Shown one piece after another: positions 636 to 29,512 of a stretch of 64,000 nucleotides of DNA; the first letter of the stretch is position 1, and the number at the start of each line of letters is the position of its first letter. The stretch comes from an uncultured Verrucomicrobiae bacterium. Its GTDB lineage: Bacteria; Verrucomicrobiota; Verrucomicrobiia; Limisphaerales; UBA8199. The stretch is from contig CAWGGD010000015.1 of assembly GCA_963822005.1 (NCBI GenBank), positions 479,555 through 543,554 on the forward strand, in the 5' to 3' direction. A program made the position numbers and the translations under genes. The notes beneath the pieces are model-generated. The model was not told where the DNA came from and did no database searches. It saw nothing but the letters and a program-made list of their open reading frames with translations.

Positions 636-2276
<1,641 letters not shown>

Positions 2277-2817: not shown

Positions 2818-3732
2818 TCATTTAGGGAAGAGGAACTGGACTTGAAACCGCAGTTGCCAATCGGCGCCGTTGTCGGGTTTCTCGACGTTGTAAAACGCCT
2901 GGAGCTGGAAGTTGACCGGCAGCTTGCCGAAGCGCTGGATCTTGCCCACGCCGCCGCCGACGGGCACCGTCCAGCGGTTGTCGCTGTTCGCTTCCCAATC
3001 AGCGGTGATGATGGGCGCGGTGACGAGGTACCAGCCGTGGGGCAGGTTGTAGTTGACGAACGGCTGCACGAGCATGGCGTTGACGTTGCGATCACCCCAG
3101 CCCGCGAAGGACCACTGGTTATTGGCCAGCGCGCCGATGACCCAATGGCCCTGCATGGTCAGCGCCACCGCCGCCGGCCCGGCGCACCACTTCCCGTTGC
3201 CCAGCATCGAGTCGGTCGCCGTCGGGAAGGTGAAGGTTGGCCCCGCGCCCCAGATGAACTTCTTGGACTTGGCCGGCGAGAAGAAGAAAGTGGGGTTGAT
3301 GTCGCCCAGGCCGGACGCGCTCCGCACACCGGGCTGGGGAGGCTGGCTGATGATCGGCATGATGGTCCGCGTGATCAGGTTCCAATCCTCGCTCAAGCTG
3401 ATGGGAATGACCGGCTGGACGTTGAGAATGTATTGCACGGCGTTGTTCGGTCCGACGCCGAAATTGAAGTCGTTCTGGAAAGGCACACTGATGAGTTTCG
3501 CGACCGGGTTCTGCGCGGCCTTGGCCAGCGCCTCCTGGCCTTCCTCGCCTTCGCCCCCGCCTCCGCCTCCAGCCGTCTCACCGGGAGCCTCCTTCAGGGT
3601 GAGCGGACGGTAGAACGCGCTTTGGCCGTCATCCAGACCGCGCGCGTCGCCGACGTTCTGACCCTGGAGGTCGAAGCTGGTCGCGAGCGCGGCCAGCAGT
3701 GGCAAGGCGATGTGGTTTAGCTTCAGCTTCAT
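2818..3732 (-). CDS. Outer-membrane beta-barrel protein (MetA-pathway/transporter-like OMP family) with signal peptide MKLKLNHIALPLLAALATS.
   Basis: The sequence is aromatic-rich and ends in a terminal aromatic (LFPK), with a Gly-rich linker. A paralog lies at 21648-22670. Confidence 0.55.
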   Translation of the reverse strand: MKLKLNHIALPLLAALATSFDLQGQNVGDARGLDDGQSAFYRPLTLKEAPGETAGGGGGGEGEEGQEALAKAAQNPVAKLISVPFQNDFNFGVGPNNAVQYILNVQPVIPISLSEDWNLITRTIMPIISQPPQPGVRSASGLGDINPTFFFSPAKSKKFIWGAGPTFTFPTATDSMLGNGKWCAGPAAVALTMQGHWVIGALANNQWSFAGWGDRNVNAMLVQPFVNYNLPHGWYLVTAPIITADWEANSDNRWTVPVGGGVGKIQRFGKLPVNFQLQAFYNVEKPDNGADWQLRFQVQFLFPK

Positions 3733-3809: not shown

Positions 3810-4187
3810 TCAGGCGCTCTCACCCGCCGGCTCGGCGTGGGTGCCGGAGCCGAGCCGGATCGCCCCGACGTAATCCAGCCCGCGGGTCTCGGACATCCAG
3901 CGGATCTCCAGCACGGGCGGTCTGGGGGCGGTTTCCATCACCGCCAGGAGTCGGCCGAAGCGCCGGGAGCGAATCTGGTCCTCCATTTGCGCCGGGCTGG
4001 CCCATTCTTCGACGTAACAGAGCGCTTCCGGCTGATCCACCTCCTGGTAGATACAGCTCGATACGAAGCCGCGCTCAGCCCGCGCCGGCAGCATGATGGA
4101 CCGCAGGGCCTTGACCATCTCCGCCGCGTGTACAGGTTGAGCCTTGATTTGTAAGCGTAATTCGACCAACAGATGGGCTATAGGCAT
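3810..4187 (-). CDS. Small ABM-like (antibiotic biosynthesis monooxygenase fold) protein.
   Basis: The ORF is 125 aa, with size and pattern consistent with an ABM/Dabb domain. It lies downstream of a palindromic repeat array. Confidence 0.45.
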   Translation of the reverse strand: MPIAHLLVELRLQIKAQPVHAAEMVKALRSIMLPARAERGFVSSCIYQEVDQPEALCYVEEWASPAQMEDQIRSRRFGRLLAVMETAPRPPVLEIRWMSETRGLDYVGAIRLGSGTHAEPAGESA

Positions 4188-4472
4188 TTATGATGCCAAG
4201 CCGGTGGGTTGATGAATCTACATCGCTAACTTGCTGAAACAAAGCAACTTAGGTGACATACGCCGTTTATGAGCCCGGCTATTGAACTAGGAAATATCTC
4301 CAGCTTATTGGAGGCTCTACAGCAGGCTGGAGGCCCACTGCGACAGCGCGGCAGCGCGGCGAGTCAACACAGATAGACGGCTGCATCCATCCCTGCCCCT
4401 GACTCGGCAACCAGAGTACCCCGCTCGGCAGCCAGGACGACCTCCCCCAGGCACTCCAGATACTGCCACCAT

Positions 4473-4697: not shown

Positions 4698-6269
4698 CTA
4701 CGCCGGGCGCCGAAGGCCCAGCTTTGCCATTCGGAATTCCAGGGTGGTGGGTTTGAGGCCCAGAATCGCCGCCGCGCCCTTTTTGCCGCGGATTCGCCAG
4801 GCAGTCTGTTCCAGCACCCGCAAGACGTGTTCGCGCTCGACCTCTTCCATAGCCTGGCTGGGCTGCGCCCCCGTCGCGCGGGCATCAGGCTGTTCGATCT
4901 TCAACCTGGTCCCCGACGAGACGATCATCGCCCGCTCGATGGCGTTCCGCAGCTCCCGCACATTGCCCGGCCAGGGATAGCGCTGGAGCTGGTCCATGGT
5001 GGCTTGCCCAATGGACTGGATCTGCTTGCCGAACTGCGCGGCAAACTCCTCCACGAAGGCCCAGACCAGCGGCGGGATGTCTTCGCGACGCTCGCGCAAG
5101 GGCGGTACCTTGATCGGAAATACGTTCAGCCGATAGTAGAGATCCTGCCGGAACCGGCCTTCCCGGACCAGCTTCTCCAGGTCCCGATTCGTCGCCGCGA
5201 TGATGCGGATATCAACCTTGACGGGCTTGTGGCTGCCCAGCCGTTCGATTTCCTTCTCCTGCAGGACACGCAGCAGTTTCGCCTGAACCTCGGGTGGCAG
5301 CTCGCTGATTTCATCCAGGAAAATGGTGGAGCCGCTGGCCAGTTCGAAGCGGCCGGCCTGCCGGGTTAAGGCGCCGGTGTAGGCGCCTTTCTCGCGGCCA
5401 AACAGCTCGCTCTCAATGAGCGTGGCGGGAATGGCCGCGCAGTTGACCGTCACCATCGCCAGGCCGGAGCGGGGGCTGAGGTCGTGGATGACCGACGCGA
5501 TCACCTCCTTGCCGGTGCCGGTCTCGCCTTGCAGCAGGACGGTGGACGCGGTTGGGGCCACCTGCTCGACCTGGGCGAGGACGCGCTGGAGGGCCGGGCT
5601 TCGGCCGGTGAGACGCCGGTGGCCATGGAACTCTTTCACCTCCTGCCGGAGATAGGCGTTCTCCTGCTCCAATTGCTCTTTCAACTGCCGCACTTGCTCC
5701 ATGGCCTGGCGCAGAGCCGTATCAGCGGCCTGTCGCGATAGGGCATTGGCGAAAATCTCCGCGATCAAGCGCAGGCGGCCAACCAGCACTTCCGGCCAGC
5801 GGCGCTCCTCCTTTAGCGTGCCGAAAGCCAGCGCGCCCAGAACTTTGCCGCCCGCAATCAGCGGAAACGTCACGTTTGACTTTGGTCCCAGTCGGCGAAT
5901 GCTCTCTTTGTCCACCGCCGCCTCGGCGGGGAGTTCCTCCACGGATGAAAACTGAATGGGCCGGCCGGCGAGAATCTGTTGAACCCCCCAGGGATAGAGT
6001 TTGCCTGGGGGCGTCGGCGGATTCAGCTTGAATTCAGGCCTGGCCCAGCCATGGGTGGTGACCAAGTCCCGCGACGGCTCTCGCAATTCATAGAGTGTGC
6101 TCCGGTCAAGCCCCAGCGCTTCGCAAATGCGCTGCTGAGCGTTCTCAATCGCCCCGTCCACCTTGTCGCCGGCGATGTTGACGAAGCCCGCCAAGAGCTC
6201 GGTGAGCAGTATCTCAAACTGCAGGCGCTCTTCGAGTTCTGCGGGCGGCGTGGCGTCTCCGGCATTCAT
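4698..6269 (-). CDS. Sigma-54-dependent transcriptional activator (bacterial enhancer-binding protein) with an N-terminal GAF-like domain, an AAA+ domain and a C-terminal Fis-type HTH.
   Basis: Diagnostic motifs are present: GETGTGKE (Walker A), GAFTGA, ESELFGH-like, and a C-terminal HTH (AAILGLKPTTLEFRMAKLGL). Confidence 0.9.
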   Translation of the reverse strand: MNAGDATPPAELEERLQFEILLTELLAGFVNIAGDKVDGAIENAQQRICEALGLDRSTLYELREPSRDLVTTHGWARPEFKLNPPTPPGKLYPWGVQQILAGRPIQFSSVEELPAEAAVDKESIRRLGPKSNVTFPLIAGGKVLGALAFGTLKEERRWPEVLVGRLRLIAEIFANALSRQAADTALRQAMEQVRQLKEQLEQENAYLRQEVKEFHGHRRLTGRSPALQRVLAQVEQVAPTASTVLLQGETGTGKEVIASVIHDLSPRSGLAMVTVNCAAIPATLIESELFGREKGAYTGALTRQAGRFELASGSTIFLDEISELPPEVQAKLLRVLQEKEIERLGSHKPVKVDIRIIAATNRDLEKLVREGRFRQDLYYRLNVFPIKVPPLRERREDIPPLVWAFVEEFAAQFGKQIQSIGQATMDQLQRYPWPGNVRELRNAIERAMIVSSGTRLKIEQPDARATGAQPSQAMEEVEREHVLRVLEQTAWRIRGKKGAAAILGLKPTTLEFRMAKLGLRRPA

Positions 6270-6275
6270 TGGATT

Positions 6276-7106
6276 TCAGCCGTGGTGCTGGCCACCCGTG
6301 GGCTCGGATTGGCCCGAGGAAGAATGGAGCGCCACCAGGCGTGAAATCAGCACGGCCACGTAGAACAGTCCGGCGATGGCTTCCGTCACCGCCAGCATCC
6401 GGGCAGCCTTCGACACCGGCGTGATGTCGCCGAAGCCGATGGTGCACAGTGTAATGAAGCTGAAGTAGAACGCGCTGAAGCCGTCCAGAGTGGCTCCTGC
6501 ACTGGACCCTGCCGGGAACGCGAATGCGCCTGGATTCAGCCGGGAGACCATCACGTACATCGGTATCCACAGCAACCCGAGCAGCAAATAGCCGGAGAGA
6601 CCGGCGCAGAGCACGTTGGTGTCAACCCGGGGGGCTCGCATGATGAAGCGGAGCAGATTCGCGACGATAAAGCCGAAGAACACGACCCCGGAGGCCAGAA
6701 AGACGACGGGAGGCATCAGATCGGGGCGGAGATGGTTGGCCCACTTGCCACCCAGCGCGGGGCTCAGCAGCAGCAGCGCGACGATCAACGTCCGGCGGCG
6801 GCCGCCCACGGCCAGCACCGCCGACACCATCACCAGCGTGAGTAGGATAACCTCGATCAAATCACCCCCTGGCAAATCCTCTACGAGTGGCGCCGACACA
6901 AACAGGAGCACCAACGCCACCAACAGTTCGACGGCGGAGAAGCGAAACGCGCCCACGCGAAAAAGCCCTTCGCGCTGGGGCGCGAGGGACGCCATTCCGT
7001 CGCCCGGCGGTTGACCCGGGCGCCACCCCACCTCGGTCGGAGTTTCGGTGGTCTCGGAGCCCTGATTCGCTCGGTCGTCCGGTCTGGTTGGGGTCGTGTG
7101 CGCCAT
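6276..7106 (-). CDS. Ion-channel protein (K+-channel-like pore) with selectivity-filter variant TIGFGD. Its stop is 7 bp upstream of the sigma-54 activator start.
   Basis: Transmembrane helices and the pore motif TLCTIGFGDITP are present. It is paralogous to 14173-14916, which carries the canonical TVGYGD. Confidence 0.7.
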   Translation of the reverse strand: MAHTTPTRPDDRANQGSETTETPTEVGWRPGQPPGDGMASLAPQREGLFRVGAFRFSAVELLVALVLLFVSAPLVEDLPGGDLIEVILLTLVMVSAVLAVGGRRRTLIVALLLLSPALGGKWANHLRPDLMPPVVFLASGVVFFGFIVANLLRFIMRAPRVDTNVLCAGLSGYLLLGLLWIPMYVMVSRLNPGAFAFPAGSSAGATLDGFSAFYFSFITLCTIGFGDITPVSKAARMLAVTEAIAGLFYVAVLISRLVALHSSSGQSEPTGGQHHG

Positions 7107-7142
7107 AAGCTGATCGCCGTTCTAAGCGGTGAGATACTTCAT

Positions 7143-8678
7143 TTACCAGACGAGCACAAATTGAAGTTGCGCCACCAGCGCGGCATTGGCGTTGGGGTTG
7201 TGGACCGGGTTCCAAACGACCTGGAAATCGGGCTGGATTCTCATCATCGGGGTCAGTTGCAGCGTGTAGAACGTTTCCAGGACATACTCGTTTTCGTGAA
7301 ACACCGGCTGAGAGGTGGCTGCCGGCTGGGACCACACAAAGCCAACGCCGAGCAGATCGTTGCTATGCCGGGGCAGCAACCCCGCGTGTTTGAAAGGCGC
7401 ATGCATCACCAAACCGGTGCCCGCCTGCGCGGAAGCGGCGGCAGCCACTTCCGAACCGCCGAAACCAAACCGCCCGAACCAGCCGAACGGAGAATGGCGG
7501 CCAAGCTGCTGCTGCAGGTTGAAACAGAGCCCGCCCTGGACTCTGCCGCCGGCTCCGCCCACAAACGGTTGAATGCGGTAAATGCCCGGCCCCAGGCCGA
7601 ACACATCGTCCGGGGCGTAACCGCCCTCCCAGCTCAGCGACCAGCTTTCCCAGCTAAAATCGGTCCAGGGCGCATGGCCGGCGATCGAGCTGCCAGCGGA
7701 GGCGCCGAGCATCGCGTACCAATCGTCGTGCGGCTGCCACTGCAGGTTCAGGCCGAAGCTGTAGCTCGGCAACGGTAGCACAAGGCTGTTGATGAGCGCC
7801 GAGTTGATGAATTGGCCGCGGCCGCTTTGGGCATAGCTATTGGCGTCCAGGTAATTGCCCTGGCTCACCATGCCCGCCACCACCACCACCTCGCCGTCGC
7901 GGAAGGACTGCTGCCAGTCCAGTTCGGGAATCCGAAAGCCGTTGACGCTGGACCAAATCCCAGTGGGATCGGTAAGGGAACCGAGGTTCCGGCGAGCGTC
8001 CTGCGTCCGGCCGCCCGAACCGAGCCCGGTTTTGGCCTCGACCTGAGTGCTCAGCCAGCCCGCGGTGCCCGCGTTGGGCGCGTCGAAGACCGCCCACTTG
8101 GCCTTGAAATCAAAAGTGTAGTAGCCAAGGGCATGGTCTCCCTGCATCACGTCGGTCAGGCCGACACCGGTACAGGTCTGCTCCAGCGAGTAACGCAGCC
8201 CCATCTCCGAGGCCAAGTACTTCGCTCGCTGTACCTCGCGCTCAAAGGGCGCCACGGCGATCAGCGACCCCGGCTGGCCGGCCGTGTTGCCGTACTCATC
8301 CTGGCTCGCCAGGTAGGGCATGAGGCGCGGTTGAACCGATGGAAAGAACTGGATTCCCGCCCGGGGCTCACGGCTCTGCTCCAACCGCTCACGTATCTCG
8401 GGAGGCGATTTGGTGCCTTTTGTGGGGGTGGGAATCTGGCGCTTTAGGTCAAGACCGGCGGGCGGGTACAGCTTGGAAGGCAGTTCGTTGGTAGGCACCT
8501 TGACCAGGCGCCCCAAGCTGTCCAATAGCAGGACCTTATCGGTGTGGGAGTTGGTGGCATTGTCACTGCCGGCCTCGGCAGCCATGCTCGGAGCCCCCGA
8601 CGCCTGAACTTGCGCCGGCAGGGTGAAGCCGGCCAGGCAGACCGCCAGCAGCGGGTTCAGTTTCCCGGGCCATTTCAT
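7143..8678 (-). CDS. Large outer-membrane porin-like beta-barrel protein (possibly an OprB-type carbohydrate-selective porin) with signal MKWPGKLNPLLAVCLAGFTLPAQVQA.
   Basis: A signal peptide is present. The sequence is rich in Gly and aromatic residues and ends in Trp (LQFVLVW). Confidence 0.45.
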   Translation of the reverse strand: MKWPGKLNPLLAVCLAGFTLPAQVQASGAPSMAAEAGSDNATNSHTDKVLLLDSLGRLVKVPTNELPSKLYPPAGLDLKRQIPTPTKGTKSPPEIRERLEQSREPRAGIQFFPSVQPRLMPYLASQDEYGNTAGQPGSLIAVAPFEREVQRAKYLASEMGLRYSLEQTCTGVGLTDVMQGDHALGYYTFDFKAKWAVFDAPNAGTAGWLSTQVEAKTGLGSGGRTQDARRNLGSLTDPTGIWSSVNGFRIPELDWQQSFRDGEVVVVAGMVSQGNYLDANSYAQSGRGQFINSALINSLVLPLPSYSFGLNLQWQPHDDWYAMLGASAGSSIAGHAPWTDFSWESWSLSWEGGYAPDDVFGLGPGIYRIQPFVGGAGGRVQGGLCFNLQQQLGRHSPFGWFGRFGFGGSEVAAAASAQAGTGLVMHAPFKHAGLLPRHSNDLLGVGFVWSQPAATSQPVFHENEYVLETFYTLQLTPMMRIQPDFQVVWNPVHNPNANAALVAQLQFVLVW

Positions 8679-8771
8679 CTGTCTTTGACTCGGGTCACCT
8701 TCTCGGTCCATCCGTGAATGCGCAGGCTGCTCTCAGGTCAGACGGCCCGCGCGGTTCGCAGGCGCGGCGCG

Positions 8772-9533
8772 TCATCTGTGAGGGGGCGCTTGCGGGACAG
8801 CCGACGTCGTCTCCTTGAGCGCTTGCGCAAGTTGGCGGCTCAGGTCGGCGACGAGTCCGCTTAGCGTGGCAATGGCCCCGGACGGGTCGGCGTCCGGCGG
8901 GGCGCCCTGGCGCGCGAGACGAACCTGGCCGGCTTTGAGCATCTTCTCTCCGCCCGGTGCGAGGATGCGCCACCATGCGACGAGCACTCCGTGGCCACCG
9001 GCATCCACGTCGAATCGCTCGATCGCGACATAGACCTCCACTGAGACGTCCTCGCTCCGCCACGCGGACAAACGCACCTGGTCCGTGGGCAGCAAGGTCG
9101 CAAGGTTGGCCGCCAGCACACGCTGGATTCCGGTGTCCAGGCGCTCGGCCCAGAGCACCGAGGGGAGATAATCAACTTCGTTGGTGCCCTTGCGAACCGC
9201 CAGCGAGGTGTCGAAGAGATAGGCCGGTAGTTTCACCTGGCCCACGCCCACGGCCAAAGCACCGGGAGCCACCTTCGCCGGTCCGGTAGCCGGCAGCGGG
9301 GTCAGGACGAAATGCCGGGCCGTGGCGCGCGCGGGCTTGAGGAAGCCGAAGCAGCCCGTCAAGCCCCCACAAGCGGCAACAGCGAGTACCAAGCGGGTGA
9401 GAGTAGAAAGCCGAAGCAGCCTGGTGAGTGGGCGACTGCCTGGCGGCACGCAAGCGGCGGTTTCACAACGCAAGCGCGGTTCCGCTATTCGCACTTCGGA
9501 CTTCGGACTTCGGACTTCAACTTCGTGTTTCAT
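8772..9533 (-). CDS. PqiC/YmbA-like (DUF330) ABC-transport auxiliary lipoprotein.
   Basis: Lipobox LTGC. The gene immediately follows an MCE-protein gene, and its ATGA overlaps that gene's stop. Confidence 0.6.
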   Translation of the reverse strand: MKHEVEVRSPKSEVRIAEPRLRCETAACVPPGSRPLTRLLRLSTLTRLVLAVAACGGLTGCFGFLKPARATARHFVLTPLPATGPAKVAPGALAVGVGQVKLPAYLFDTSLAVRKGTNEVDYLPSVLWAERLDTGIQRVLAANLATLLPTDQVRLSAWRSEDVSVEVYVAIERFDVDAGGHGVLVAWWRILAPGGEKMLKAGQVRLARQGAPPDADPSGAIATLSGLVADLSRQLAQALKETTSAVPQAPPHR

Positions 9534-10519
9534 GGTTTCTTGGGGAGGATTTGGCGACCGGCGATAAGGGCGTTGGGGTGCTGTTTCAGAAAGTCGAGCA
9601 GGACGGCCAAGGACTGCACAGCCCCGGAGAGTTGTTGCAGGGCCTGGTCGAGATTGTTGGGCAAAGGCGCATCGGGCCCGAGCAGGGTCCGCAGGTTCTC
9701 GCCCGCCCCGCGGATTTGGGCTAGCGCGCGATTGGCTTCCGCGAGCGAGTTGGTGATGCTGTCGGAGAGCGGGTCAACCTTGCCGGTGAGCTTGGCGCCC
9801 AACTCGCGGTACTGGTCGAGCGTCGGCCGGACGGCCGCCAAGCCGTTCGTGATGTCGGGGGAGGTCACGAGACGCTCAACCGAAGCGAGCAGGTTAGTGA
9901 TGCTTTGGTTGATCTCCGCCATGTGCAGACTGCCGACGGTGGTGTCGAGTTTGACGAGCAGCGCATTCAGGTTCTTCTCGATGCTCTTGATGTCGAGGCT
10001 GGCGAGGTTGCTCATCAACTGCTGGATTTGGGTCGGCTCGGTGGGCAGCTCAGGATAGATCTGCTGGAGTTGATGGAAGACCGGCGGCGGCGCGTTCGGA
10101 TTGGGTCGAACCTCGATGTAGAGCACCCCGGTGACCAGGCTCTCGGATTGCAAGGAGGCGCGCAGGCCGCTTTGAATCCGCTGCCCCAGGGAGCGGTCCG
10201 TGAAGACCTCCATATTATCATCTCCCAGCCGCGCCCGCAGGAGCTTCTCCTCCAATTCGATGATCACCGGCATGGCGTAATCGTTGGTGGCCTGGTTGAA
10301 CCGGACCATCACCCGCTTGACGGAGCCGATGGTCACGCCGCGGTACTTGACCGGAGCGCCTACGTTCAGGCCGTTCAGCGAGTCGTTGAAGTAGACGATG
10401 AGGTCGCGGGTCTTGCTGAACATCTTAGACGAGCTGAAGAGCAGCAAGCCGGTCACGCCCAGGGCTACGCCCGTGACAATGAACAGCCCGATGGTAGTGG
10501 TGTTGATTTTCTGGCTCAT
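9530..10519 (-). CDS. MCE/MlaD-family (PqiB-like) protein.
   Basis: It has an N-terminal transmembrane helix followed by an MCE domain (VKYRGVTIGSVKRV) and a long helical C-terminus. Confidence 0.85.
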   Translation of the reverse strand: MSQKINTTTIGLFIVTGVALGVTGLLLFSSSKMFSKTRDLIVYFNDSLNGLNVGAPVKYRGVTIGSVKRVMVRFNQATNDYAMPVIIELEEKLLRARLGDDNMEVFTDRSLGQRIQSGLRASLQSESLVTGVLYIEVRPNPNAPPPVFHQLQQIYPELPTEPTQIQQLMSNLASLDIKSIEKNLNALLVKLDTTVGSLHMAEINQSITNLLASVERLVTSPDITNGLAAVRPTLDQYRELGAKLTGKVDPLSDSITNSLAEANRALAQIRGAGENLRTLLGPDAPLPNNLDQALQQLSGAVQSLAVLLDFLKQHPNALIAGRQILPKKP

Positions 10520-10531
10520 AAGTCTGGAGGA

Positions 10532-11321
10532 TTACTGGGCCTTGGCGGCGGCAGGTTGGGGGACGGCTTCACCGCGGGTGAGAAACTCGCGCACGGCGGG
10601 ATCGGTGGAGTTCTTCAGCAGCTCGCGCGGGTTGCCTTGCGCCCGCATCGTGCGGGTGTTGGGATCCAGGAAAACCGAGTTGTCGGCGATCGTGAAAATG
10701 CTGGCCAGCTCGTGGGTGACGACGACGAACGTGGCGCCGAGGCTGTCGCGGAGTTGCAGGATCAGTTCGTCCAGGTTGCGCGAACTGATCGGGTCCAGGC
10801 CGGCCGACGGCTCGTCAAAGAACAAAACGTCCGGGTCCAGCGCCAGGGCGCGAGCGAGCCCGGCACGCTTGCACATGCCGCCCGAAATCTCCGCCGGATA
10901 GTAATCCTCAAAGCCTTTCAAGCCGACGAGCGCCAGCTTCAACCGGGCGATGTCGCGGATTTCGGCCGGCGGGAACTCGGTGTATTCGCCCAGCACCAGC
11001 CCGATGTTCTCCGCCAGCGTCATCGAGCTCCACAGGGCGCCCCCCTGAAACAAGACGCCGAAGCTGCGCAGCTTGACCGTCCGCGCTTCCTCATCCGAAG
11101 CCCAGAAAGGAGCGCCGTCGTAGAACACATCCCCCTGCGCCGGCTGCTTCAGCCCGATCATGTGCCGCAGCAGCGTGCTTTTGCCGCAGCCGCTGCCACC
11201 CATGATGATGAAGATCTCGCCGCGCTTGCATCTTCGCGCTGATGTCGCGCATGACCACGAACGAGCCGTAGGCCATCGTCAGGTCGCGAATCTCGATCTT
11301 GATGTCGGCGTCGGGGTTCAC
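10532..11321 (-). CDS. ABC transporter ATP-binding protein (MlaF-like) with a 1-bp frameshift near 11215.
   Basis: Walker A (GGSGCGKST), the ABC signature LSGGM and Walker B DEP are present. The N-terminus (MNPDADIKIEIRDLTMAYG) is in another frame (ORF 11091-11321). Confidence 0.8.
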
Positions 11322-11324
11322 GGC

Positions 11325-12468
11325 TCAAATGTGCAATGCGCTGCAGATCACGGCGAAAATGCCATCCGACGCGATGATCCAGGTGATGCCGGTCACCACC
11401 GCCGAGGTGGTGGCCTGGCCGACGGCGGCCGCATTGGTGCCGCATTGCATCCCGCGCAAACAGCCGGTCAGCGCCACCAGCACGCCAAAGAACCCGCCCT
11501 TGAAAACGCCCAGCAGAAACCCGGAAAGGCGGATGGCTGCGACGGTGCGGTCCAGATAAAGCACCGGCGGCGACGTCCAGCATCAGGGTCGAGACCAGGA
11601 ACCCGCCGGCGATGGCGATCAGGTCGGCGAAAATGCACAGCAGCGGCATCATCAGGATCAACGCCAGCATCCGGGGCAGGACGAGGAACTCGAAGGGCGA
11701 GATGCCGAAGGTCCGGAACGCCTCGATCTCCTGGTTCACCTTCATGGTGCCCAGTTGCGCGGCAAACGCCGCGCCGGTGCGGCCGCAGATGATGATGCCG
11801 GTCATGATGCAGGCCATCTCGCGGACGGTGGCCACGGCCACGAGATCCGCCGTGTAGATGGACGCGCCGAACTGGGTCAGCTCGGTGGCGCCGACGAAGG
11901 CGAGGATCATCCCGATGAGAAAGTTGATCAGGGCCACGATGCCCAGGGCCTCCGGCCCGCACTGCTGGATGACCAGCAGTGTGTCCGACCAGCGGAACTG
12001 GGCCCGGCCACGCAGCAGCTTCAGCAACGCCACCACGCTCTCGCCCAGGAAGCTGAGCATCGCCGTGCCGCCCGTCCAGGCCTCCAGGCCCGACTCGCCG
12101 ACCCGCTGGAGGAAGGGCGCCTTCACGTCCCGGCGGGCCGCATCCGTCTTTTCCGGAACGGCCTGGGAAAGCGCGATCAGCTTCGCCAGGCCGTCCGGCA
12201 GGGTCTTGGTGCGGAACTCGACCTTCGCCTTTGTGCAAAGCTCGTTGAGTGCCAGAATGCGCACCATCAAGGCGCTGTCCCAGCGTCCCAGCCCCTGCGC
12301 ATCAAACTCCAGTGCGGGCACGCGGCTGCCAGCCAGTTCCTTCTCCACCGCCGAGACGTCCGGCAGGCCCGTCCGATCCAGCCAATCACCGGCGATTTCG
12401 ACGACGAGGACGCCATCCTCTTTCCGCCGAACGGCCAGCCGCGCACGAGTATGTTCCGGGTTACTCAC
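11325..12468 (-). CDS. ABC permease MlaE-like with an N-terminal STAS (anti-sigma-antagonist-like) domain fusion. There is a frameshift near 11570.
   Basis: The MlaE transmembrane core is split between ORF 11158-12468 and ORF 11325-11564. The N-terminal ~120 aa is STAS-like. Confidence 0.75.
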
Positions 12469-12827: not shown

Positions 12828-13765
12828 TTAATCCACCCGAATGCTGATCCGGGAGTCCTCCGCCTTCGGGAACTTCGCTTTCACGTCGGCTTCCAGATCT
12901 TGCAGGTCAAGCCCCGCCGGCATGTGGACGAAGAACACCATCCGCTTTTTGCCCCGGGACAGCGCATAACTTACAATCCGACAGCCGTGCGCGATGAGCA
13001 CTGGCTGCACTTTGCTATACACCGGGTTCGGATCCGCAGTGCCCTCGAGCCGGACCCTGATCCGGCAGCTTACCCGTGAATCCAACCAGAAGATCAGGCC
13101 CCAACTGAACGCGGTGACGAAGACCGCCATCGTCCACGATCCCATGCCGCAGGCCAGTCCAATCACCACGCCAGGATGGCTTTCCCGGTGACTTTCGGAT
13201 TGTCGAGCACGGTGCGGAACCGCAGCAGCGCGCCGATGCCGAAGATGACAAACGCGAGCGTTGGGCTGGTCCCGCTCAATTCGGCCACAATAGCGCCGAC
13301 CACGCCGAGGATGATGAGCGCCTTGCGCTCTTCGAAGTCGGACAGCGGATCAATCCGCGTCGCGCGGCGCGGATGCCAGGCAACCACCCACGCGCAACCC
13401 ACCGCCAGGCTCAGGCTCAAGAAGAGGCGCAGCACGAATTGCGGATGCGCAAACTGTTGCAGGCTGTTTTGGATGGACAGCAACGAATCGCCGTGCGGAT
13501 CGGTGCCGCCCATGACCGCGCCTCGGGTCATGGCCTTCGACAAGATTGATACGTGCGTCGTTTCCTTCTCGCCACTACCCGCAACCTTGGCGGTGTCATT
13601 GGACACCGCCGAATCGTGGTGCGGAACCTCGCCGCTGGTGGCCGTATCCTTGGTCGTCTCTTTCGCCGGGTCAGCGCCAAACGCCGCCGAGGATAGCAGG
13701 AGGGCAAAAGCGGCGATGGCGGAAGCCAGCGCCCCGGTAAACAATGCATTTCTGTCTGTTTTCAT
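12828..13765 (-). CDS. DUF4956-like membrane protein with a frameshift near 13165.
   Basis: The motif LLRFRTVLDNPKVTGKAI...VIGLACGMG is split between ORFs 13163-13765 and 12828-13169. Confidence 0.5.
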
Positions 13766-14172: not shown

Positions 14173-14916
14173 TCACGGTCCCTTCTCGAGGTTCGACCCG
14201 GCAGCAGGTTGCGCGGAGGCATAGACCGACACGAGGCGGGAAATCAGCACTGCCATGTAGAACAGCCCGGTGATGGCTTCCGTCATCGCGAGCATTCGGG
14301 CGACCCTGGAAACTGGCGCGATGTCGCCGTAGCCGACGGTGCAGAGGGTGATGACGCTGAAATACAAGGCGCTGAACCCGTCTAAGGTGGCGGGCGCATC
14401 CGCACCCGCAGGCAGGGTGAACGCGTGGGGATTCAGGCGGGCGACGGCGGCGTAAGCCGGCACCCACAGCAAAGCCAGCATCAAAAAGCCCGAGACCCCG
14501 GCGCAGAGAACATTGGCGTCCACCCGCGGCGCGCGCACGAGGAAGGCGAGCAGGCGCGCAATCACAAACGCGAAGAAGGCGACGGCGGCGGCCAGAAATA
14601 TGGCCGGAGGCAGCAGGTCGGGGCGGAAGTGGTTGATCCACTTCCCAGCCAGCGCGGGAGTGAGCAGTACAAGCGCGAGGATCAAGACCTTGCGCCGGCT
14701 CCCGACCACCAGCACGGCGGACACCATGACGAGCGTCAGAAGCACCGATTCGAGCAGGTCGCCCTGCGGCAAATCCTGCACGAAGGGCGCGGACACGAAG
14801 AGAAGTCCCAGCGCCACCAGGAGCTTGACGGCGGAGTAGCGAGCGGCGCCGAGCGGAAGGGCGGATTGGCACCGGGGCGGGACGGTTGGGTCGGGGGATT
14901 GGGGTGTGGGGTTCAT
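14173..14916 (-). CDS. K+-channel-like protein with canonical selectivity filter TVGYGD. It is a paralog of 6276-7106.
   Basis: Pore helix plus TLCTVGYGDIAP. There is about 60% identity with the other channel. Confidence 0.75.
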   Translation of the reverse strand: MNPTPQSPDPTVPPRCQSALPLGAARYSAVKLLVALGLLFVSAPFVQDLPQGDLLESVLLTLVMVSAVLVVGSRRKVLILALVLLTPALAGKWINHFRPDLLPPAIFLAAAVAFFAFVIARLLAFLVRAPRVDANVLCAGVSGFLMLALLWVPAYAAVARLNPHAFTLPAGADAPATLDGFSALYFSVITLCTVGYGDIAPVSRVARMLAMTEAITGLFYMAVLISRLVSVYASAQPAAGSNLEKGP

Positions 14917-14921
14917 CGGCC

Positions 14922-15677
14922 TTACTTCGCGAAATGGTTCAGGGCGTTAAGCATCGGTTCGCTGGAAAGCCGGATCATGCCGCCCAGCGGGTGGTCCAGC
15001 TCAACGACCAGGAAGACGGCGACGGCGACCGATAGGGCCGCAGAGACCAGGGCGAGGGTGGTGGTGGCGTTAGGCGGCGCGAGCAGGCTGAAGCCGAGAA
15101 AGATGAGCATCAGCCAGCAGCCGACGGCGATCAGCAACGGCTTGGGAATCGAGGGGACCATCTGCGCCAGCAACAGCATGCGGAGCTGGGCAAGGTCCAC
15201 GGCCAGAGACGCGGCCTGCGCCTTCAGGCCGCGCTGGGTGTCGTCGCGGGGGGAGAGTGACTGGATGGCGGCATAGACCGCGTCGCCCGCTTGCGCGTTG
15301 GGCATCAACTGGGCCCGCTCGCGCGCCTCCCGCGGCCACATGCGCCGGACCGCTTCCTCGACGGCTTGCCGAAAGCGGGCGCGAGCCTCGGCCGCTTCCG
15401 GACCATAGGCGGTGAGGACGCGGTCGAGGAACGCAACCTTGGCGGCCATCTGGATGACCTCGGTGCGCTGGGTGTCGTAGGTGCCCTTGGCGGAGCTCAC
15501 GAGCAGGCCCAGGAGCAGGGCGGTCATCGTTGCGACCAAGCCCATGGCCAGCTTCACGGCGTCCTTCGAGTCCCCGCTCAGGTGATGATCCGGCAGGTGC
15601 GGTCGCACAGTGCGTCCGAGCAGCACCGCGGCCACGAGGGCGGCGAGCAGGATAAGGGAGGTGAGGGCGGTGCTCAT
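14922..15677 (-). CDS. Hypothetical integral membrane protein, immediately upstream of and co-directional with the K+-channel paralog.
   Basis: It has an N-terminal transmembrane helix, a C-terminal transmembrane pair, and a 6-bp gap to the downstream gene. Confidence 0.5.
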   Translation of the reverse strand: MSTALTSLILLAALVAAVLLGRTVRPHLPDHHLSGDSKDAVKLAMGLVATMTALLLGLLVSSAKGTYDTQRTEVIQMAAKVAFLDRVLTAYGPEAAEARARFRQAVEEAVRRMWPREARERAQLMPNAQAGDAVYAAIQSLSPRDDTQRGLKAQAASLAVDLAQLRMLLLAQMVPSIPKPLLIAVGCWLMLIFLGFSLLAPPNATTTLALVSAALSVAVAVFLVVELDHPLGGMIRLSSEPMLNALNHFAK

Positions 15678-27341: not shown

Positions 27342-29512
27342 GTGATGAGAGTGTGCGATTTCTCTTGTTGGGTTGTGATTCGAATCACTCGTGGAGACTC
27401 TCTTGCTAGTCCCGTGCCAGCAAGTCACACCGATGAACGATGGCTGCCTAAGTGCTTGATTTTGAATCAGATACAACAACCTACCACCTCAGCCTGGTTC
27501 GGGATGCAAGCATGCAAGGTTGACTGGCCGTCCTTCCTGGGTTATTTAGTCAACTGGTTCGCTACCTCAACCCTTGCATGTTATGGTGTATTGACGCGAC
27601 AAAACGGTAGCCCAAGCTCACGGAGGCGCAGGATAAGCTCTGGAAACTGGCCTCTAATCCCTGCATCGTGTTGGGCGAAACTCGAGTCACCGACAGCTGG
27701 CATTGCCCTAACCTGCCTGGGAGACGGATGTCCCGAGGCCAAGCTGGGAATGGAGCCCGGCACTTTCCCTAAGACGATCCAAGCTGCCATCGCCATGATG
27801 CATCCGGAGGACACTCCAGTGTATCGCGAGACCGTAGAACGCTGCCTGGCCACCGGCGAGGCTTTTGACGCGACCTATCGGCTGGCGGACGGCCGCGGCG
27901 GATGGCGATGGATCGAAGGCCGCGCGGTGCCGGTGGAGAACCGGAGCCCCAAGCCGGCCCGATGGGTGCCATCACGCGGTTTGACCGCAACGCGTAGTAA
28001 AGGTAGCGCTGGCCGATCGTTGCAGGAACTGGAGGCTTCCCGGTCGGAGTTGAGGTCCGAGAAAGATAGACTGTGGAGGCTGGCCGCAAACGCCTTCTCT
28101 GTGTTGGGAGAGGCTCGGATCACTGAAAGCGGCATGAACTTCGAGTTTTTCGGGGACGAACCTCCCGAAGCGAAGGTCGGCCTGTTGCCGGGCAGCTTCG
28201 GCGGCAGTCATGAGAAGCTGCTGGCCTTAATCCACCCGGAGGACATCGAGCCTTACCTGCAAAGAGTGGAACATTCCGTGGCCACGGGTAAGCCGTTCAG
28301 AGCGGTTTATCGTCTGTCCGACGGCCGCGGGGGCTGGCGCTGGCTCCAGGCCCGAGCCATCTCCGTTGAAAAGCGCGGCGGCAAGCACGTTCGCTGGTTG
28401 CATGACACCATTGATGTCACGGAGCAAAAAGAGCTGGAGGAGAGTCTGCGCAAGTCCGTGGAAGAACTGCGGCAGTTGAAGACCAAATTGCAGGCCGAGA
28501 ACCTCTTCCTGAGGCAGGAGGCTGGATTGGAGACGGCAGACGCCGATATCATTGGTAGCAGCTCCGCCCTGGGCCACGTCCTGGAGCAGGTGGACTTGGT
28601 CGCCGGGACCTCTTCGACGGTGGTGATCAGCGGCGAAACGGGCACCGGCAAGGAGATGGTGGCCCGTGCGATCCACCAACGCAGTGGCCGCAAGAAGGGC
28701 CTGTTTGTGGCTGTGAATTGCGCCGCCCTGCCGGAGACACTGGTGGAAAGCGAACTGTTTGGGCATGAGAAAGGGGCTTTCACGGGAGCAGTAGCCCGCC
28801 GCACCGGCAGGTTCGAGCAGGCTGATGGAGGCACGCTATTTCAGGATGAGGTGGGTGAGCTGTCATTGGAAACCCAGGCCAAAATGCTTCGGGTGCTGCA
28901 GTCCGGCGAGTTCGAGCGCGTGGGCGGCGGGCGGCCGCTGAAAACCGACGTGCGGGTCATTGCGGCCAGCAACCGCGATTTGGAACAGGCCGTGCGCGAG
29001 GGCCGGTTTAGGAGCGATCTTTACCATCGTCTGGCCGTCTTTCCCATACACCTGCCTCCCCTGCGCGAACGGCGCGAGGACATTCCCCTGCTCGCCGCCT
29101 ACCTGGTGACGCGCAAGGCGCAGCGGCTGGGTCGGAAGATCGAAAAGATACCGAACGCGGTCCTTGACCGGCTGGCGAGTTATGATTGGCCCGGCAACGT
29201 GCGCGAGCTGGAGAATGTGCTGGAGCGCGCGATCATTCTCTCCCCCGGTACGTCACTGCGGCTGGAGGCCATCCAGTTGGGCTCCGCTGCCCGCGCGGCC
29301 CCGGGCGCCCGCATTCACCGGGCGCCACCGCTCACGCCGCTAAGGACGACACACTGCAGGTGCACGAACGGGCACACATCCTGCGCATCTGCCAGGCGAC
29401 CGCCTGGAAAATCAAGGGCGCGGACGGCGCGGCCAAAGCCCTGGGGCTCAATCCCGCCACGCTCTACTCCCGCATGAAGAAGCTCGGCATCCAGCGCCCG
29501 GCGATCCGTTGA
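27342..29512 (+). CDS. Sigma-54-dependent activator with two tandem PAS domains, an AAA+ domain and a Fis-type HTH. The start is uncertain, and there is a frameshift near 29300-29340 before the HTH.
   Basis: Two repeats of ...HPED..Y...VE....TG.PF...YRL.DGRGGWRW... are present, together with GETGTGKE and GAFTGA. The C-terminal HTH (ILRICQATAWKIKGADGAAKALGLNPATLYSRMKKLGI) lies in ORF 29186-29512. Confidence 0.75.

Follow-up and report, generated by a model that had tools for sequence, protein, structure and literature searches.

A potassium-channel-family gene directly upstream of a sigma-54 activator gene in an uncultured Verrucomicrobiae bacterium: a recurrent but dispensable pairing

A 64,000-nucleotide (nt) stretch of DNA from an uncultured Verrucomicrobiae bacterium (contig CAWGGD010000015.1, positions 479,555 to 543,554; hereafter the window) carries on its minus strand a gene for a K+-channel-family protein, chanA (6276..7106), which ends just before a gene for a GAF-domain sigma-54 activator, or bacterial enhancer-binding protein (bEBP), bEBP_A (4698..6269). 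Comparison with related loci revealed that a channel gene lies immediately upstream of the orthologous activator in four lineages and in none of six others. To judge from gene order, the deeply conserved partner of the activator is a downstream unit consisting of an ABM-domain gene and a sulfatase gene, not the channel. We regard it as about an even call that the chanA/bEBP_A junction is a lineage-restricted, derived operon fusion that provides co-expression, with channel and activator acting independently of each other.

The chanA gene encodes 276 residues with a Pfam Ion_trans_2 match (PF07885, E = 2.4e-13) and the selectivity filter TIGFGD within TLCTIGFGD, and bEBP_A encodes 523 residues with Pfam matches to GAF, Sigma54_activat (PF00158, E = 2e-71), AAA_lid_14 and HTH_8 (HTH, helix-turn-helix). 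Both open reading frames (ORFs) are intact and full length, and they share strand and reading frame. An initial annotation of the window had described a channel gene with a TIGFGD filter ending 7 bp before a same-strand GAF-activator gene; its coordinates, the adjacency and the filter were all verified, whereas the spacer, read from the sequence as AATCCA (6270..6275, minus strand) between the chanA TGA and the bEBP_A ATG, is 6 nt long (GGC TGA AAT CCA ATG). Read-through of the chanA TGA (6270-6278) would give a channel-activator fusion, with only TGA AAT CCA intervening, and no natural fusion of this kind was seen among the listed homologues. A site scan detected neither a terminator-like nor a sigma-70-like site at the junction, which is weak evidence in this phylum, where the consensus may differ. 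A same-strand spacer of 6 nt nevertheless leaves no room for a promoter or terminator between the genes, and because nothing separates the two, co-transcription is likely, as the initial annotation had proposed provided that neither element intervened. The junction thus has the usual marks of an operon, namely a shared strand, a very short spacer and no terminator-like site.

The start codon of bEBP_A is supported by an N-terminus (MNAGD...ELEER) common to six orthologues. Upstream of all orthologous activator genes, irrespective of the gene further upstream, a leader of about 14 nt is kept, GACYGAAANCNAATG. The AATCCA spacer sits within this leader, as does the chanA stop, which occupies the same codon position as in the chanA orthologue of locus L084 (related loci and contigs are given here by our own L and P handles). 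The final 20 nt before the activator align without gaps to L090, L085 and L089. In a review of Escherichia coli reporter work, translational coupling is found to act over spacings between -4 and about +25 nt, and no gene spacing is said to be commoner in prokaryotes than the -4 NTGA overlap (PMC12548453).

To what extent the adjacency is conserved was assessed from the activator side as well as from the channel side. Among orthologous activators, a channel gene is immediately upstream in the window, in the P0122 contig, in L090/L091 and in the L156 group. In the P0122 contig the activator is 90% identical and the channel lies upstream on the same strand, across a gap of 249 nt. In L090 and L091 the activators are 84-88% identical, and the channel TGA overlaps the activator ATG as ATGA. 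The ATGA junction is kept in L156-L160 too, where the channel is intact (88% identical to that of L090) and the activator is reduced to residues 1-103 plus 336-362, followed by sulfatase fragments; at L156 positions 6801-8261, these activator and sulfatase deletion remnants are succeeded by PqiA-PqiA-MlaD-lipoprotein genes. No channel was present upstream of the activator in L085, L086, L087, L088, L089 or the P0131 contig, a search of the DNA before the channel-less activators of L085-L089 turned up no remnant of one, and a channel upstream is absent from all loci with activators of about 50% identity. Ahead of the activator, L085 and L086 have in common a homologous non-coding stretch of about 150 nt, probably the ancestral promoter region.

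The initial annotation had suggested a phylogenetic profile of the adjacency and had taken its conservation in no related genome as decisive against the idea. A channel is directly upstream in three lineages besides that of the window, with the ATGA overlap in two of them; the profile therefore shows an adjacency that recurs in four lineages, yet is facultative and missing in six. This falls short of the co-conservation that a NifL-NifA-like pair would exhibit.

The channels adjoining activators in the three relatives form a distinct L-type clade, not the A/B-type clade into which chanA falls. The L-type channels are 73-76% identical to one another and their activators 84-86%. Since bEBP_A is 88-90% identical to the activators next to L-type channels but chanA reaches no more than 50-54% identity to those channels, the window carries, by this measure, a different channel paralogue at the same junction as its relatives. 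Two readings of this paralogue swap are possible: selection on the pairing, or the collapse of tandem paralogues by deletion. Tandem channel genes are present in L011. Every upstream context breaks off within the leader, about 14 nt from the activator ATG.

From the channel side, one scan of species-representative genomes yielded 80 loci, 52 of them encoding full-length relatives and 51 with at least 1 kb of downstream sequence. The scan patterns matched A/B-type channels only and missed the L-type signatures TLTTVGYGD and EVLCAGISIY, so that the L-type subfamily was unsampled and the extent of L-type pairing lies outside this count. A sigma-54 AAA+ gene was found in the flanks of none of the 52 full-length A/B-type loci; one locus has a GAF-bEBP gene 5 kb away. 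The three nearest chanA orthologues (76-82% identity) show no activator downstream. In L084 (82% identical to chanA) the order is porin, channel and then 180 nt of non-coding repeats to the contig end; in L082/L083 (76%) MlaD and lipoprotein genes precede the channel and an unrelated lipoprotein gene follows it; and in L081 (77%) the gene downstream of the channel is a convergent LssY_C gene. The repeats of L084 (positions 1222-1400) comprise three copies of a unit of about 45 nt (CCTGAAAGGCGCAGAYAAT...) directly after the channel, where the contig stops. The possibility that the gene after the L082 channel is the arabinofuranosidase gene that precedes the activator in L086, which would explain the window by a simple deletion, was rejected, as the two are unrelated.

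On the other side of the activator, conservation is deeper. At the nucleotide level, the window is homologous to the orthologous loci through activator, ABM gene and sulfatase; this homology ends some 10 nt before the ATG of the activator. The ABM-domain gene (3810..4187, minus strand; about 120 residues, Pfam ABM) is found downstream of the activator orthologues of L085, L086, L087, L089 and the P0131 contig, and also downstream of activators of about 50% identity in 13 further metagenomic loci. This gene probably begins with the TTG at 4169: the pattern of third-position substitutions is that of coding sequence from this invariant TTG onward, and on the same evidence the start at Met24 that gene callers chose in relatives was rejected. 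The sulfatase (699..2276, minus strand) is syntenic with the activator-ABM pair in relatives and is here split over three reading frames, the L086 sulfatase matching the window by tblastn in frames -1/-2/-3/-1. Between the ABM gene and the sulfatase, positions 2818-3732 (minus strand) encode a 304-residue protein without a Pfam match, which may, from its sequence, be a beta-barrel outer-membrane protein; L087 has it too (8858-9652), whereas L085, L086 and L089 do not.

The region between the activator and the ABM gene contains two conserved elements. An inverted repeat, CCTCCAATAAGCTGGAG (4298-4314, minus strand), accompanied by a similar half-copy (4317-4333), is nearly invariant across five orthologous loci and is a candidate either for the activator-binding site or for the terminator of the activator gene, having been flagged as terminator-like in the scan. 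About 108 nt downstream of it, a -24/-12 sigma-54-like motif, TGGCATCATAAATGC / TGGCAYCATAAATGC (4184..4198, minus strand), is invariant in five loci. The motif TGGCATCATAAATGC is the sole match to TGGCAY-N5-WTGC in the 64-kb window, a relaxed pattern that was chosen after the conserved motif had been seen; a window scan with the E. coli sigma-54 consensus TGGCAC-N5-TTGC, allowing one mismatch, gave 6 matches against 6.3 expected and was uninformative. In more distant activator-ABM loci, GG-N10-GC motifs precede the ABM gene by 75-110 nt. In the clade of the window, no more than 14 nt separate the motif from the invariant ABM TTG, which would imply an almost leaderless mRNA. Together, the inverted repeat and the -24/-12-like motif have the layout expected of a bEBP-dependent promoter, which we regard as putative.

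The activator itself possesses the features of its class. Walker A (GETGTGKE), DEISE and a GAYTGA loop, the F-to-Y variant of GAFTGA, could be read in the translation, and with a GAF domain at residues 41-177 and HTH_8 at 474-516, the sensor, AAA+ and HTH parts of a sigma-54 activator are all present. Its NCBIfam scores are below the equivalog cut-offs for FhlA (388 versus 830), NifA (385 versus 529) and NorR (353 versus 476), so that by sequence bEBP_A is a generic GAF-type bEBP without an NCBIfam equivalog. It has many close orthologues (75-90% identity), and the N-terminus is the same whether or not a channel adjoins the activator.

In order to place the channel, an AlphaFold model of the chanA monomer was built from a 117-sequence alignment (predicted local distance difference test score, pLDDT, 83.6); a first model from 32 sequences (pLDDT 61) had given meaningless Foldseek matches and was discarded for it. 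The model has helices at residues 58-75, 81-100, 104-126, 133-157, 163-190 and 233-266 and a pore helix at 209-222, and predicts a minimal six-transmembrane (6TM) channel: six transmembrane (TM) helices and a pore helix, with no cytoplasmic domain. The initial annotation had termed the channel pore-only, a description that does not fit the four further TM helices that precede the pore in the model. The outer helix (163-190) and inner helix (233-266) flank the pore helix with pLDDT >90, and the pore aligns to that of Kir and KirBac with a root-mean-square deviation of 3.5-4 Å. The top Foldseek matches are all K+ channels, at TM-scores of 0.24-0.45 and with every E value at or above 0.013; 6TM channels (Slo2.2, KvAP, hERG, GORK, CNG and SthK) head the list and match over most of the length, and Kir matches over the pore only. 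Sequence matches in the PDB are restricted to the pore.

TLCTIGFGD corresponds to chanA residues 219-227, and T222, G224, G226 and D227 are invariant across 117 homologues. Two hallmarks of the K+ channel superfamily, a pore helix followed by a T-x-G-x-G-D filter and outer and inner TM helices on either side, are thus found in chanA. The initial annotation had called the filter a variant; because TIG and GFG each occur in other members of the family and both are compatible with K+ selectivity (as in Kir and hERG-type filters), TIGFGD has no special significance. Homologues of chanA carry the JGI label 'voltage-gated potassium channel', which is not established, since helix 4 has just three arginines (R153, R157 and R160), all at its C-terminal end and without a regular RxxR ladder, where a voltage-gated S4 would have at least four basic residues at every third position. 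Pfam Ion_trans gave no match in chanA, and an L-type channel matches it weakly, below the cut-off. The loops of chanA are very short, and its C-terminal tail is short, of low complexity and unconserved. Among 8000 scored candidates in each case, the chanA family has at least 2425 matches at E <= 1e-5 and its L-type sister subfamily at least 3596 at E <= 1e-30. Homologues occur in Verrucomicrobiota, Planctomycetota including anammox bacteria, Competibacteraceae, Syntrophales and others.

Under the reading that we prefer, the ancestral unit would have been activator, ABM gene and sulfatase, with the activator GAF domain sensing a small ligand and the activator driving a sigma-54 promoter ahead of the ABM gene. 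In one group of close relatives an L-type channel would have become fused onto the 14-nt leader of the activator; in the lineage of the window, a porin-chanA block would have taken that position, and the activator would have lost its own upstream region. The result would be one same-strand transcription unit of Mla-like transporter genes, an OprB porin gene, chanA and, at its tail, the activator, which would be transcribed through chanA and, most likely given the 6-nt gap, translated by termination-reinitiation. The channel would serve ion homeostasis as an ordinary channel of the minimal 6TM K+ type, and the activator would do no more than share its expression. Several points weigh against this account. 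A channel of this family is upstream of the orthologous activator in as many as four lineages, and a fifth is possible, P0125 with P0246, inferred only from both lying on 7104-nt contigs; a similar pairing of P0222 with L057, both on 4022-nt contigs, was rejected because L057 is without an activator. Chance does not readily explain two channel subfamilies at one junction, and selection on the pairing may be the cause. Furthermore, the L-type channels stand outside the genome scan, the patterns of which did not match them, and ATGA overlaps are enriched among subunits of one complex, according to Huber et al. 2023 as cited in PMC12548453.

These points lead to the alternative that channel and activator form a functional module, in which, much as in NifL-NifA or PspA-PspF, the channel would be a stoichiometric membrane partner or sensor of the GAF activator, and K+ flux, membrane potential or membrane sequestration would gate sigma-54-dependent expression of the ABM gene and sulfatase. 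We consider this unlikely, although it is the alternative to be taken most seriously. In addition to the recurrence of the pairing with both channel subfamilies at the same junction and the ATGA overlap of L090/L091 and L156-L160, the L-type channels (73-76%) and their activators (84-86%) diverge in step, as fits long co-inheritance, and a spacing of -4 to +6 nt suits translational coupling, such pairs often encoding complex subunits (PMC12548453). However, six of ten orthologous lineages have lost the pairing with no visible change to the activator, the channel stays intact where the activator has decayed (L156-L160), and the genes are 249 nt apart in the P0122 contig. The channel also lacks a cytoplasmic domain with which to contact the activator, its tail being short, of low complexity and unconserved; 0/52 A/B-type loci are paired with an activator; and a literature search on K+ channels together with sigma-54 activators returned nothing relevant. 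A narrower form of the proposal, in which the channel is a dedicated, translationally coupled partner in one verrucomicrobial clade, its state (K+ flux, membrane potential or tethering) gates the ABM/sulfatase unit, and chanA replaced a lost L-type channel at the exact junction, appears a little less probable again. The initial annotation had envisaged a membrane-potential or ion-sensing input to sigma-54 regulation. That ions or voltage act directly on the activator is possible, but there is no support for it: the pairing is dispensable, nothing links K+ or membrane potential to the activator, and the conserved partner is the ABM/sulfatase unit.

At the other extreme, the two genes may have been juxtaposed neutrally at a rearrangement hotspot, with the activator expressed from a separate promoter located within the 3' end of chanA and neither co-regulated with nor functionally linked to the channel. 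The DNA before the activator falls into at least four unrelated contexts (chanA, an L-type channel, the non-coding DNA of L085/L086, and the gene for a 304-residue protein of no known function in L089), all of them breaking off about 14 nt from the ATG, genes for IS200-type transposases are nearby in L088 and L089, and deletion between tandem paralogues such as those of L011 could have swapped in chanA without selection. We nonetheless think this rather improbable. No sigma-70-like promoter was detected, with the reservation that the consensus may not be that of this phylum; the junction keeps the native chanA stop, at the same codon as in L084; and by a rough estimate (2-3 paralogues among several thousand genes), the chance that a random upstream neighbour is a channel is well under 1%. 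That the junction, or its spacing and frame, is an error of long-read metagenome assembly seems highly improbable. The three frame changes in the sulfatase and an apparent frameshift in bEBP_B, a second activator gene in the window, would fit indel-prone long-read data, and the out-of-frame sulfatase (699-2276) and bEBP_B HTH may be either pseudogenes or such indel errors. In contrast, the two junction ORFs are complete and unbroken, no gap is needed to align the final 20 nt before the activator with L090, L085 and L089, and independent contigs from other samples have a channel at the same place.

The genes upstream of chanA on the minus strand begin with one for an OprB-family porin (7143..8711; Pfam OprB), 36 nt upstream of chanA, and continue with a Mla-like array identified by Pfam: an ABC_trans_aux lipoprotein (8772-9533), MlaD (9530-10519), an ABC ATPase (10532-11203) and STAS-MlaE (11158-12468). 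L084, the nearest chanA orthologue, has the same porin-channel order with the same 36-nt gap. MlaD and ABC_trans_aux genes also precede the L086 activator and the chanA-type channel of L082. An OprB-family porin gene repeatedly neighbours A/B-type channel genes (L084, L005, L017 and L021), with the order of porin and channel reversed in L005 and L017 and the porin nearby on the opposite strand in L021.

The initial annotation had further listed a second channel/activator set in the window. These are two unlinked genes about 12 kb apart, and the second activator gene, bEBP_B, is linked to neither channel. The second channel gene, chanB (14173..14916, minus strand), encodes a paralogue with the filter TVGYGD, 65% identical to chanA, and has no adjoining activator. 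Its tight linkage to a membrane-protein gene, likewise noted initially, was confirmed: a 251-residue protein with a Bestrophin-like domain (PF14023, E = 1e-30; 14922..15677, minus strand) is encoded 5 nt upstream. This pair is adjacent in 7/52 related loci from several phyla (L015, L017, L021, L025, L032, L046 and L065). The gene order suggests that the channel/Bestrophin-like pairing is far better conserved than that of channel and activator, and may represent a cation-channel/anion-channel module. Downstream of chanB, positions 13163-13765 (minus strand) encode a membrane protein without a Pfam match, which has the segments FVLRLFLSL..WHPR and VLDNPK.TGKAIL in common with the product of the gene upstream of the chanA-type channel in L081 (L081 143-1162). 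As for bEBP_B (27342..29512, plus strand), which had been described as a bEBP with tandem PAS domains, the PAS and AAA+ parts were recovered, with two PAS_3 stretches and Sigma54_activat in an ORF at 27342-29477, but it is not a single intact gene: as sequenced it has a frameshift between about 29290 and 29370, and its HTH is in another frame, ending at 29512.

Were the channel to inform the activator, this would be the first case in which a sigma-54 enhancer-binding protein takes its input from an ion channel, and transcription in a little-studied phylum would be linked to the electrical or ionic state of the membrane. On present evidence, the analysis documents a recurrent but dispensable gene pairing, points to the ABM/sulfatase unit, with a candidate promoter and binding site, as the real conserved partner of the activator, and defines two subfamilies in a large, uncharacterised family of minimal 6TM K+ channels. 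The components are additional members of known families, and the arrangement was not found described in the literature searched.

Among known systems, chanA most resembles the minimal prokaryotic 6TM K+ channels (KvAP, KvLm, MVP, the TM core of SthK, and E. coli Kch), with which it shares the TxGxGD filter, the S5-P-S6 pore and, as predicted by the model, four preceding TM helices; Foldseek aligned 220-260 columns of KvAP, SthK, hERG, GORK and Slo to it. Unlike these channels, it has no RCK or cyclic-nucleotide-binding domain and no regular S4 arginine ladder. FhlA, NorR and NifA have the same order of GAF, AAA+ and HTH_8 as bEBP_A and give strong partial NCBIfam matches, but bEBP_A scores below all three equivalog cut-offs, and its conserved neighbours are the ABM gene and sulfatase rather than hydrogenlyase, nif or nor genes. 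bEBP_A has a single GAF domain; FhlA is larger.

NifL of the NifL-NifA system is a soluble PAS/histidine-kinase-like protein that binds NifA and accompanies it wherever that system is known to occur. As in Klebsiella and Azotobacter, a GAF, sigma-54 AAA+ and HTH activator gene here follows very closely on another gene, the distance being 6 nt in the window and an ATGA overlap in L090 and L156; translational coupling has been described for nifL-nifA (PMC12548453). In contrast to NifL, the upstream gene here encodes an integral-membrane channel without a cytoplasmic domain and is absent from six of ten orthologous lineages, and the activator is below the NifA cut-off (385 versus 529). The PspA/B/C-PspF system is a precedent for control of a bEBP by membrane energetics through membrane proteins. 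There, the PspA adaptor binds the AAA+ domain of PspF, which is without a sensor domain, whereas the locus described here has no PspA-like gene and its activator carries a GAF sensor of its own.

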